Source: a virus
Taxonomy: Duplodnaviria > Heunggongvirae > Uroviricota > Caudoviricetes
Strand: one strand, 5' to 3'
Virus record (IMG/VR): IMGVR_UViG_2548876700_000013
Length of the DNA: 5,404 nt
This document shows positions 1 through 3,000 of this stretch, one piece after another (position 1 is the stretch's first letter; each line of letters starts with the position of its first letter). A program made the position numbers.

Positions 1-3000
1 TTTCCATCTGGTACATACCCCGTCTCCCGTTATCCGGAAGCTGACAACAATAAAAAGCCACCAGTTAATTCCTGATGGCCCTGATGCATAAACGTCATAA
101 TACCTGACTGTTATGATTGACAATAATGATAATGTTTATATAGAAAGGTTCCCGATGTGTGTTACATATCATTTCTCCACGGGGAATATCCCCACGCCAG
201 CGCAGACTCTTTTACCCGTTCTCTTCTGCGCTGGCTCTTTTTTATTATGCTGCTGCATTTACCTCTGGCACCATGCTTTCTATCTCAACACAATACGTGG
301 TACTTCTTGTAACCAATATCATAACGATTAATCGACATAGAATTTCTCCCGTGTACAGGAACAGAGTTAAAAAGCCGGAACCGGAATCAAATCACAGGAT
401 GACCATCTGCCAGTGGCAGGTCATAAAAAAAAGGCCGCGCCATGCGCAGCCAGAACTCACAAGGAAAATGATAGAAGGAAATAACATTAGTGATGTACGC
501 ATGGCGCCTCCCGCTAAGTTCTGCAATGATCAAACAGAACTCGCTACGTGCCCTTAAAACTCGATCATTTAGCCCCTCCAAGGAGGATTCACCATGCGGT
601 TGATTTTTTAATAAACAGTAAACAAAAAAGTCAAGAATTATTCATTCTGTTCTTTCATCATCGGCCACAGCAATACCACAATGCCGCAGACCAGAGCGCC
701 ATCAGTCAGTACCAACATTATCCTGCTGGTGAAATCCATCATCACCATCACTAAAAGCAGGATCACAACAGCAAGCAGACACAGTTTATAAAACAATGTT
801 CAGGAAACGCATTCAGCATGCCTAAGGTTCTATTCCTACGAATAGCCAACTTGCAACTTAAAATATTATTTATGCAGCCAATTAAATTCTGGTCCTTACA
901 ATATCAACCTGAAGATTCTTATCTTGTGCTGATTGATAAATGACAAACCTTTTACTACCTGCATTGAAAGAAGTAGACAAAACCAGACAATTATCATAAC
1001 GAGCAAGAACATAATACCAACCATCATTATAATTAATCATTTCATATTCTTTCTTAAACTGTGGTTTGTAATATCCTGTCAGAAATGAAAAAAGCCAGAA
1101 ATATGCCACAAAAGCAATCATCACAATCTCAAAAAAATGTTTTTTTATAAATGGCTTATCATAGAAGCATGATACCGATAAAAATCGCCCATAAGATCTT
1201 ATCGAAATTGTAACCGCCAGCGCAATCGCTGCTGACAGTAGCAAAAGAGGTACCTGAATCTTCTGTCTCAATATAGAAAACTCAATAATTGCCGGCACAA
1301 ACAATAATTCCACAGCAAAATAAAGGCGAAATACATTTAGCTCTTGCATAGAATGTTTTCTTTTCACTGCGAAAAAGAATACAACACCAATACCCCAACC
1401 GATAAGAAATATAGCAATGACGATAACTGCAAAAAATAAACTTCTGGCAACATCATCAACACCTGCACCTACAATCCACCATGGGAAGCCGTAGTAAAAA
1501 GAAGTACCCCATCCATAGAAATAAGCACTCCCCCATCCAAGGCATCCCATGTAGGCAATAAAAAGTGAAGAACTCCTGAGCAGCGCACCATCCTTCATAA
1601 CCACCCCAATACAAGATGATAACATTGGCTTACAACTCATAACAAAAGCAATTCAATGCCGTCAAGAGGTTACAGGCTAAAAAAACTCTATTACATAGCA
1701 GCCAGCATGTTTACCGTACAAGTACAACTCAGGGCATAAAAAAAAACCCACTCGGCAGCGGGTTTATACATTTTTTACAACATACCAAATTTGCATGAAG
1801 TATATGGCTTTTAATCCAGTTTTGCAATATTTTGCTGTAAAAATGCTGCCTTTTGTTTTGAACGTGTTCTCGTCACAAGCAATAAAGCATCACTATCAAG
1901 CTGTAGAAAAATGTGCTTCATTGCAACCCAGCGTTCAGTAAATGTCTCGGACCAGTTTTTTGTTGTCACTCCCACCAATGATGCCAGTGTCTGGTATTCA
2001 TAGGCCTCACGCCCTGCAAGTTCGCTCTTCACATCCTGTGCAGCCAGCCAGATTAACGTCTTCAGGCGATCCAGTGTCTTACCTGCAATTTTTCTGTTAC
2101 TTAACAAATCTTTAAACTCGCTCCATGCCCATTGCGTTATGGTGACCTGATGCCCCCATCGAACGCTTTCGCTGTAACACCAAAGCAACCATGCTTTCTG
2201 ATGTTCATCGAGAGACAAAACCGCGCGGCGCCATGAAGAGGTTGAGAATTCAACCGGGCTGACCAAAGCAATGGATGAACCTTTTGCGTACGACTGCTTA
2301 CCGGAAGTCGGCGTATTATCCAGCGTAATCATCTTGCCAGTTACCACATCCAGAATGCGCGGCTTCTTTCGTTTGTATGTACCAGTATCAAATTGTGCAT
2401 GCTCCTGCCAGGCTTCGAGCTGGCCTTTCGTTGCTCCGTTCAAGTCAGCAGTAGCTGCCATAAGTTGCTCACGAACATACTGTAAATATTGGGTATTCAT
2501 GCAGTAAATCCTTTCTATATTTTGGCATAATTCTTCAACATTCGGTAATCGTTCAAAACCGAATCGGGGAAACGACATAAGCACAGGAGCCCCCAGCGAC
2601 AGCGAAGGAGTTCTGATATATAAGACTCAGACATCATTCATTCCCCGGTTCTCCAATATCTGTTTCACTCATCATCCATAACTACCTGTAATTGCCCCCC
2701 CTTTTTTTGTAACAGTTCTTATATTGCTATATAGAATAGCCATTACTAATGCATTTAAATTTAATAAAATAAAAATTATAAAAAACATAAAACACCACGC
2801 AAACACACTTAATAAAAACACCGTTACATTAAAAGATAATAAAAACCGCAATAAAAAACGAATAAATCAATTGTCTCACGCAATTATAAAACATCATATT
2901 GATTACGCACCTTGTATTACAAACTCATGTATGTAAAATACGCGCACCATTCAAAAAAAAGGAAGACAATAACATATGAAAAAAAGTGTCATCGCTGGCG

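Follow-up and report, generated by a model that had tools for sequence, protein, structure and literature searches.

Convergent pairs of Hfq-bound sRNAs have been described from the moron site downstream of PR' in prophage Sp3 of Escherichia coli O157:H7 Sakai and in other lambdoid prophages (Tree et al. 2014, Mol Cell, PMC4104026). The two RNAs of Sp3, EcOnc13 and EcOnc32, were detected there by Hfq-CRAC crosslinking and as Northern bands of ~187 nt and ~112 nt, and EcOnc32, which is marked as carrying a predicted Rho-independent terminator, ranked second by Hfq-crosslinking signal among the orphan sites that Table S2 of that paper lists. The locus of EcOnc13 corresponds to PasD1 of prophage PP4 in EPEC strain E2348/69, for which a Northern blot, Hfq dependence and RIL-seq targets have been published, and the PasD seed UGUGAG complements the CUCACA motif of these targets (Pearl Mizrahi et al. 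2021, PMC8550237, supplement). PasD is flanked by Q and LpxR in >98% of cases, and a holin/lysozyme operon adjoins pasD1 (Zhu, Shabalina and Storz 2026 preprint, bioRxiv 10.64898/2026.05.13.724894). In phage 434 and in prophage PP2 of E2348/69 the late region has the layout Q - membrane protein - TciB - PasD2 - nanS-p esterase - PasA/PasC - S R Rz. The lysis cassette that is of interest for comparison is that of the phage 21/DLP12 type, with the class II holin S21, the lysozyme RrrD and Rz/Rz1.

The sequence analysed here (the window, 5,404 nt, with a host from the O157:H7/O55:H7 lineage) has at its beginning a region, 1..881, that by sequence alignment is 100% identical to Sp3 of Sakai and identical at 878/881 positions (99.7%) to PP4. 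At least 80% of this region is held by 563 complete E. coli genomes, and in 534 complete genomes Rz-R-S and the sRNA pair form a single contiguous block; because in ~5% of the holders of 1..881 (563 vs 534) the Rz-R-S block was not matched contiguously to 80% or more, a single strain could deviate. The deposited genome of phage Evi is ~99% identical to window 1..450. We are highly confident that 1..881 forms the distal part of the moron insertion site within the late operon of a lambdoid prophage of the Sp3/CP-933K type, intact and widely conserved, and not a truncation, with a pair of sRNAs and their terminators accounting for the two facing hairpins. This layout is ordinary for the phage lineage and already known. 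Read from Q along the minus strand, the order is PR'-tR', the membrane-protein gene, the DUF3927/TciB-like gene, PasD1/EcOnc13 with its terminator, the nanS-p remnant, the convergent EcOnc32 with its terminator on the opposite strand, a third terminator hairpin, and the RBS and start of S, after which R and Rz/Rz1 would come outside the window (Table 1).

Table 1. Features of the late region in the window, ordered by position.
Feature	Position	Strand	Basis or remark
Start of holin gene S (class II, P21-type, pinholin-like)	1..16	-	first 16 nt; rest past window start
S leader	17..40	-	SD GGGAG at 28..24, 7 nt before ATG; small upstream hairpin CUUCCG/CGGGAG
Third terminator-like hairpin	41..82	-	stem 54..82, U-rich run 53..41; 38 nt upstream of S start codon
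Predicted sigma-70 promoter of EcOnc32	104..133	+	CTGACT, 18-nt spacer, GATAAT; start near 140
EcOnc32, Hfq-bound sRNA, Esr41-like	~140..249	+	directed away from S, convergent with PasD1
Intrinsic terminator of EcOnc32 (plus-strand hairpin of the initial annotation)	196..246	+	fold; published prediction
Remnant of SASA-family sialate O-acetylesterase gene (nanS-p)	245..338	-	alignment to both ends of a relative's esterase CDS
PasD1/EcOnc13, Hfq-dependent sRNA, PasD/STnc100 group	425..597	-	late-operon strand
Intrinsic terminator of PasD1 (minus-strand terminator of the initial annotation)	425..451	-	terminator scan and fold
PasD seed UGUGAG	456..461	-	published seed; position read from sequence
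DUF3927/TciB-like small membrane protein gene (52 aa), moron	638..796	-	Pfam, PHROG
Conserved phage membrane protein gene, first after tR'	882..1640	-	PHROG 1521, E = 2e-154; WP_001302581
Predicted tR'	1765..1744	-	scan; just downstream of Q
Predicted PR'	1827..1799	-	scan; just downstream of Q
Q antiterminator gene	1811..2500		annotation in relatives
LpxR gene	2976..3935		

The membrane protein encoded just outside the region matched no Pfam family. Three of the features in Table 1, the 54..82 terminator, the DUF3927/TciB-like gene and the esterase remnant, had been overlooked in the initial annotation.

The lysis cassette had been called absent, and among the complete ORFs inside 1..881 it is true that Pfam and PHROGs reveal no holin, endolysin or spanin. 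The apparent lack is an artefact of the window edge. Minus-strand bases 16..1 begin ATG TAC CAG ATG GAA and encode MYQME, the first five codons of a 71-aa holin, with the dual start (Met1 at 16..14, Met4 at 7..5) that is also found in the phage 21/DLP12-type cassette. In PV15-279, E2348/69, Sakai and DEC5E, base 16 of the window is where the RefSeq holin WP_000284524 ends, and S continues past the edge in every close relative examined. The full-length holin of identical relatives matches Pfam Phage_holin_2_1 (PF04971, E = 1.1e-32) and PHROG holin families as well; in the PV15-279 flank, outside the window, Pfam finds Phage_lysozyme (E = 1e-45) and Rz (E = 2.4e-28), and an Rz1 lipoprotein is annotated beyond the edge in Sakai. 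Holin, lysozyme RrrD and Rz/Rz1 thus stand directly beyond base 1 in Sakai Sp3, PV15-279, O55:H7 DEC5E and E2348/69 PP4, with Phage_holin_2_1, Phage_lysozyme and Phage_lysis in the S-R-Rz order of the phage 21/DLP12 type, although the window itself contains just 16 nt of the cassette. The leader of S is conserved in Evi, OkiPb01715 and VT2-Sakai, its Shine-Dalgarno sequence being read from the sequence and its hairpin from a fold of 17-100 on the minus strand. The other possibility raised in the initial annotation, that the lysis genes lie past the window start after a stretch of non-coding DNA or small genes, is borne out in the relatives, which keep 1..881 as a conserved block and have S/R/Rz directly after it.

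Between the DUF3927 gene and S, two transcription units with terminators oppose each other, and EcOnc13 (+) and EcOnc32 (-) of Sakai map exactly onto them. The Sakai coordinates used here are those of NC_002695.2; the 2014 paper relied on an older version, which is ~130 nt apart at 1.42 Mb, but both Hfq peaks and the EcOnc32 probe fit exactly, which argues against a shift at 0.9 Mb. The pair does not differ structurally from those of Tree et al., except that in Sp5, Sp9, Sp10 and Sp17 the antisense partner is a 51-60-nt AgvB/AsxR anti-sRNA, whereas the partner in the window is Esr41-like.

On the minus strand, 425..597 is identical (173/173) to PasD1 of E2348/69 (NC_011601 1060260-1060432). 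The PasD Northern probe corresponds to window 441..464, and the Hfq peak of EcOnc13 in Sakai maps to 441..491; the Northern probe that the supplement of Tree et al. gives for EcOnc13 matches neither the window nor Sakai 899500-903500. Sequence, seed and terminator are the same as in PP4, as are the neighbours (the membrane protein, DUF3927 and the adjacent holin/lysozyme, with Q and LpxR within 3 kb), and the sole difference is the host, EPEC versus the O157:H7/O55:H7 lineage. The synteny published for PasD is thus present here, with the holin starting at 16. PasD1 lies in or just past the 3' UTR of the DUF3927 gene, and the promoter scan gave no convincing sigma-70 promoter for it (TTGACT at 634..629 is followed by poor -10 candidates), which is why PasD1 may be processed from the DUF3927 mRNA and not be a primary transcript. 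In a lysogen it would be made, bound by Hfq and pair with its targets through the UGUGAG seed.

The PasD1 locus scores 37.7 bits (E = 1.1e-5, full model) against the gathering score of 47 for STnc100 (RF02076); it is related to that family and by the Rfam criterion not a member of it. Phage Evi carries a canonical STnc100 (119.9 bits) in the same slot, exactly at the position of PasD1. The two loci have the 5' end GCAUGGUGAAUCC, the upstream region and the terminator in common, and the similarity of the flanks, ~99% over the S-proximal part, resumes over 598..640 on the promoter side, but the central ~140 nt of PasD1, seed included, are replaced in Evi. Weak Rfam matches to asX2 and SorX at 387..480 are merely the terminator hairpin of PasD1.

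On the plus strand, the Sakai Hfq peak 901574-901662(-) maps onto window 161..249, and the published Northern probe of EcOnc32 is the exact reverse complement of 155..189. The predicted start together with a 3' end at ~247 gives an RNA of ~108 nt, compared with the published band of ~112 nt. An alternative -35 element, TTGACA at 117..122, aligns with the -35 of Esr41. The RNA has a single-stranded anti-SD seed, CAUAUCAUUUCUCCAC, at ~165..180, which published RNase E-CLASH chimeras connect with the RBS regions of entC and ECs1655. RNAduplex comparisons of EcOnc32 or Esr41 with entC and ECs1655 against shuffles gave z values from +1.1 to -1.9, in which the unconstrained duplexes over-extend, and the pairing claim is based on the published chimeras and on direct reading of the sequence. 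In a lysogen we would expect EcOnc32 to be made, bound by Hfq and paired through its seed with RBSs such as that of entC. Variants of EcOnc32 also lie between stx2B and the holin gene in some Stx2 prophages.

The facing hairpins are where the initial annotation had placed them, 178 nt apart, and both are far stronger than expected by chance. That of EcOnc32 consists of an 11-bp stem (196..206/225..235) and an unusually long loop of 18 nt, followed by UCUUUUUUAUU up to 246, with U6 after the hairpin; it folds with -21.2 kcal/mol (z = -6.8), and 0/200 shuffles were as stable. The consensus terminator scan missed it because its loop limit is 8 nt. Across variants the stem is kept, mainly by one-sided changes from G-C to G-U. 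The terminator of PasD1 has a GC-rich 8-bp stem in 433..451 and U8 at 425..432 (z = -3.1), and the published 3' end of PasD1 maps to window 425 (PMC8550237); altogether the 3' edges from published RNA-seq and Hfq peaks coincide with 425 and ~249. The third hairpin, 54..82, is a match in the terminator scan (-16.2 kcal/mol, z = -3.8), substitutions in its stem preserve pairing, e.g. A-U to G-C, and a counterpart with a U-run precedes S in VT2-Sakai, in E2348 PP2 and in phage 434, where it is annotated 'terminator'. All three, 433..451(-), 54..82(-) and 196..235(+), combine a GC-rich stem with a direct U-run and are stabler than shuffled sequences.

The terminators of the sRNAs would supply the 3' ends and the Hfq-binding tails of PasD1 and EcOnc32. 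RNA polymerase modified by Q resists terminators, and we infer that the sRNA terminators and the pre-S hairpin would stop ordinary polymerase before the lysis genes, and that after induction Q-modified polymerase from PR' would pass all of them, so that S, R and Rz are expressed. Three good terminators stand on the minus strand between PR' and S (1744..1765, 433..451 and 54..82), and they could instead be true barriers, with a lysis cassette that is not controlled by Q and is read from a promoter of its own between the sRNA pair and S. We consider this very unlikely: a weak minus-strand promoter is predicted at 271..244, but it lies upstream of the 54..82 terminator and would therefore be blocked too, promoter-like sites occur at chance level (6 found vs 6.2 expected), and both the classic phage 434 and the Stx2 phage VT2-Sakai, whose late genes are known to depend on Q antitermination, have the same pre-S hairpin. 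The genes that lie past PR' in Stx phages are transcribed together with the late genes (PMC8065619, PMC7547250).

The region also contains ORFs that are annotated in public records, a 132-aa ORF on the plus strand (159..557, ECs_0817/WP_012578864) and a 64-aa ORF on the minus strand (387..581, 'putative membrane protein' in phage 434), and ribosome profiling of EDL933 lists 'STnc100_1' at 902843(+), probably the same locus, with a ribosome-coverage value of 2.16. That either of them is a real gene and the hairpins incidental is nevertheless highly improbable. Neither ORF matched a Pfam or PHROG family, and these searches with the 132-aa, 72-aa, 68-aa and 64-aa ORFs gave nothing credible, with one sub-threshold match to Sid-5 (E = 0.0018). 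The 132-aa ORF traverses EcOnc32, the esterase remnant and the antisense strand of PasD1; it is frameshifted in phage Evi by a 1-nt indel and is 'frameshifted; internal stop' or partial in the annotation of E2348 PP2, OkiPb01715, STEC306 and CFIAFB20190172. Both strands are, moreover, already explained by experimentally detected sRNAs. The RefSeq ORF ECs_0817/WP_012578864 is probably a mis-annotation over the two sRNAs. For this ORF the earlier impression that the long ORFs look non-coding was right, but the composition of 1..881 (GC content 0.38-0.46) is not unusual within the window, and the DUF3927 gene is real: it matches Pfam DUF3927 (E = 3.4e-14) and PHROG 1470 'TciB-like' of the moron category (E = 2.5e-17), and is annotated in RefSeq and in phage 434.

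A scar does exist in the region. Phage 434 and PP2 are 97.7% identical to the window over 314..881 and have a terminator hairpin before S as the window does; in phage 434 the similarity is followed by the esterase and then by S/R/Rz. The differences are that the window is without ~1754 bp (~1.75 kb) of nanS-p and has EcOnc32 where PasA sits. The BLAST alignment breaks at 313/314, where the first 25 nt of the esterase gene (338..314) are joined out of frame to its last ~69 nt (313..245), so that the junction gives a frameshifted ORF of 17 codons, MSINRYDIGYKKYHVLC*. An intact nanS-p ORF of ~617 aa is absent from the window, and what is left is a pseudogene remnant. The layout with PasD alone arose from the esterase-containing layout through this internal deletion. 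EcOnc32 is not assigned here to one family with PasA/PasC, since an nhmmer profile gave weak, terminator-level matches alone (E = 2-4) and no homology to PasA beyond the terminator.

The scar is real but small, and the lysis cassette is untouched by it. The term module boundary, used in the initial annotation, is thus justified in a weak sense, as similarity to other phages is interrupted at ~89, 313/314 and ~452, but not in the sense of an affected lysis cassette. That the prophage was truncated or rearranged with loss of the lysis genes, the convergent terminators marking the scar, is extremely unlikely, and for the relatives it is refuted. In favour of it, no lysis ORF lies wholly within 1..881, the deletion at 313/314 is genuine, and the PV15-279 prophage is without morphogenesis genes further downstream, past Rz; against it, the start of the holin gene is present, S, R and Rz/Rz1 come directly next in every relative examined as well as in the 534 genomes, the deposited genome of Evi shares the block starting at base 1 and reaching ~450, and the deletion took an esterase moron and no lysis genes. 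When a cassette is seemingly missing at the edge of a window, the flanking sequence should be checked before a scar is inferred, and terminators that oppose each other in the late region of a phage are a hallmark of the known convergent sRNA pairs and do not indicate that the prophage is broken.

EcOnc32 has never been characterised, and its resemblance to Esr41 (Rfam RF02676) deserves some attention. It aligns over the full Esr41 model (positions 1-74) with 32.3 bits (E = 0.003), far below the gathering score of 102 bits and the 108.6 bits of genuine Esr41, and blastn finds no link between the two. They have in common a 5' hairpin, a single-stranded CAUUU(U)CUCCA motif, a small GGGG/CCCC hairpin, a terminator of the GCCAGCG type and a similar TTGACA promoter region. 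On the other hand, the sequences of the 5' hairpins are unlike, the terminator loop is 7 nt in Esr41 vs 18 nt in EcOnc32, and Esr41 is located in the SpLE1 island of O157 while EcOnc32 belongs to the late region of Sp3. In an RNAalifold analysis of the EcOnc32 variants with Esr41, the Esr41 row was misaligned by MAFFT, which made the counts of pairs with both sides changed unusable, and we used Rfam and a separate alignment of the variants. Both RNAs have CLASH partners in iron metabolism, cirA, chuA and bfr for Esr41 and the Fur-regulated entC for EcOnc32.

We tentatively suggest, as a possibility that falls somewhat short of even chances, that EcOnc32 may be a functional paralogue of Esr41, given the shared anti-SD seed and the entC chimeras, and thus a second iron-uptake regulator, gained by horizontal transfer, in Sp3-type prophages; and separately, with the same reserve, that the pre-S terminator may act as a safety gate dependent on Q, preventing transcription of the moron and the sRNAs from entering the lysis genes. 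EcOnc32 is worth testing side by side with Esr41, and if the suggestion is true, a second iron-uptake regulator of this kind could mask the phenotypes of esr41 deletions.

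The lysis genes of this prophage lie just outside the window start. The initial annotation held that 1..881 lacks the lysis cassette, but this is an artefact of the window edge, since the minus strand at 16..1 reads ATG TAC CAG ATG GAA (MYQME), the N-terminus of the 71-aa class II holin S in all relatives fetched (Pfam Phage_holin_2_1, E = 1.1e-32), and the holin is directly followed in them by lysozyme RrrD (R; E = 1e-45), Rz (E = 2.4e-28) and Rz1. The second alternative offered, lysis genes just beyond position 1, is the right one. A query that covered Rz, S and the sRNA pair and ended at the stop of the DUF3927 gene was matched contiguously in 534 genomes. 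Evi, a deposited phage genome, shows ~99% identity over 1..450 with S just past it, and phage 434 is 97.7% identical over 314..881, followed by an esterase gene and S/R/Rz. In relatives, S/R/Rz are therefore contiguous with a conserved 1..881, the very finding that, by the annotation's own account, would speak against a scar, and the layout is normal for this lineage.

Of 5426 complete genomes, 563 contain at least 80% of 1..881, and many E. coli chromosomes of serotypes O157:H7 and O55:H7 match it at 100% identity. It is identical to the reverse complement of 900942-901822 in NC_002695.2, within the Sakai prophage Sp3 (coordinates differ between Sakai record versions elsewhere in the genome), 878 of 881 positions agree with prophage PP4 of EPEC E2348/69, and O55:H7 DEC5E matches all 5404 nt at 100%. 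Annotated Sp3 spans 38.6 kb in Sakai. The O157 strain PV15-279 (L001 1..7700) has an Sp3-like prophage in which the genes for head and tail morphogenesis are missing past Rz; it continues instead into fragments of tail-fibre genes and into the effector genes nleB2, nleC, nleH1-1 and nleD, adjoining ybhB/bioA.

Features in and around 1..881 of the window
Feature	Position	Strand	Evidence
Pre-holin hairpin	54..82	-	U-run; z = -3.8; 38 nt ahead of S start
EcOnc32 promoter	104..133		predicted
EcOnc32	~140..249	+	Hfq peak at 161..249; Northern probe is exact reverse complement of 155..189
EcOnc32 terminator	196..206/225..235	+	11-bp stem, 18-nt loop, U-run; -21.2 kcal/mol, z = -6.8
132-aa ORF	159..557	+	RefSeq; no family match in Pfam or PHROGs
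nanS-p remnant (SASA-family sialate esterase)	338..245	-	matches the two ends of the esterase gene
PasD1	425..597	-	173/173 identical to PasD1
PasD1 terminator	433..451	-	GC-rich 8-bp stem, U8
DUF3927/TciB-like gene	638..796	-	Pfam and PHROGs support
NinG, Ser/Thr phosphatase, LpxR, YlcG, Q82-type antiterminator Q, then PR'/tR', membrane-protein gene	remainder of window

The two facing terminators that had been noticed are both real hairpins, and they are the predicted intrinsic terminators of the published convergent sRNA pair. Tree et al. 2014 (PMC4104026) described convergent sRNAs of lambdoid prophages, Sp3 included, at the moron insertion site that follows the late promoter PR', so the structure was already known. 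In EPEC, Northern blot and RIL-seq have validated PasD1 as an Hfq-dependent sRNA of 173 nt (PMC8550237); the published probe falls on 441..464 and the published seed UGUGAG on 456..461. Its EHEC counterpart EcOnc13 gives a Northern band of ~187 nt (PMC4104026), and the Sakai Hfq-crosslinking peak maps to 441..491. These peak coordinates fit, although the probe printed for EcOnc13 in the supplement of Tree et al. 2014 matched neither strand of the locus, which may be a numbering or PDF-extraction error. No convincing promoter was found for PasD1, which may originate from a 3' UTR.

By its Rfam score, 422..627(-) lies close to STnc100 (37.7 bits versus a gathering score of 47). Phage Evi carries a canonical STnc100 (119.9 bits) in the same slot, with a nearly identical upstream region, 5' end and terminator but a different central part, which fits the common origin of PasD and STnc100 concluded in bioRxiv 10.64898/2026.05.13.724894, where PasD is also reported to occur together with Q and LpxR, and holin and lysozyme to lie beside pasD1. 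PasD and canonical STnc100 act like interchangeable cassettes in a single locus (L003 4440..4660 versus 452..597): the central seed-bearing part is exchanged, and the upstream region, the first ~30 nt and the terminator are common. Inside PasD1, at 556..578(-), GGAGGGG is followed by the four-codon mini-ORF AUG AUC GAG UUU UAA. EDL933 ribosome profiling lists 'STnc100_1' at 902843(+), probably the PasD1 locus, with a ribosome-coverage value of 2.16.

For EcOnc32 the predicted promoter would give an RNA of ~108 nt, in accord with the Northern band of ~112 nt, and by peak area EcOnc32 ranks second in Table S2 of Tree et al. 2014 (PMC4104026). We did not find it discussed by name in any open-access main text. 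EcOnc32 aligns along the entire Esr41 model with 32 bits (gathering score 102); it is Esr41-like, yet lies outside the family by the Rfam cut-off. Both RNAs have the CAUUUCUCCA single-stranded motif and a small GGGG/CCCC hairpin, with the same type of terminator and similar promoter regions; genuine Esr41 is located on SpLE1. From the anti-SD motif and architecture, EcOnc32 looks like a diverged Esr41 paralogue. In published RNase E-CLASH chimeras its seed is joined to the ribosome-binding site of ECs1655 and to that of entC, a Fur-regulated gene of enterobactin synthesis. In Stx2-type prophages, sequences resembling EcOnc32 (83-87% identical) occur downstream of stx2B and on the strand opposite to it (L009 1501..1649; L010 1501..1576, followed by holin genes), and Esr41-like sRNAs thus belong to some Shiga-toxin late regions.

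The sole true scar of the region is the nanS-p deletion. The intact gene lies between PasD2 and PasA in E2348/69 PP2 and phage 434; here only 25 nt of its 5' end and ~69 nt of its 3' end are left, joined out of frame, while ~1754 bp are gone, and this scar is fixed across hundreds of genomes as well as in Evi. GATGTT occurs at both breakpoints in the PP2 esterase, which suggests that the segment was deleted between two short direct repeats. The EcOnc32 terminator, with its U-run, extends over the region of the former esterase stop, a place where relatives that retain the esterase also carry an antisense terminator. The 132-aa ORF (ECs_0817 / WP_012578864) overlaps both validated sRNAs and the remnant, is frameshifted or partial in relatives, and is probably a spurious annotation artefact. 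Modestly new are only the exact extent of the deletion, the probable mis-annotation of this ORF, and two features of EcOnc32, its likeness to Esr41 and its pairing with entC.

In phage 434 (where it is annotated as a terminator), VT2-Sakai and PP2, an equivalent of the pre-holin hairpin precedes S, with base changes that preserve pairing, and the hairpin is kept across otherwise diverged lambdoid phages with compensatory stem changes; candidate roles are an insulator or a regulator of S translation. Such terminator-like hairpins with a U-run stand right before class II holin genes at 41..82(-), at L002 1772..1808 and at L011 ~3540..3597.

The anatomy, the Hfq binding of PasD1 and EcOnc32, their sizes and some targets have been demonstrated or published. 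From established lambdoid biology we infer that in the lysogen polymerase from sRNA and moron promoters would be halted at the terminators, so that the lysis genes stay silent. Upon induction, Q-modified polymerase from PR' would read past tR', past the terminator of PasD1 and past the hairpin close to S, and would express S, R and Rz.
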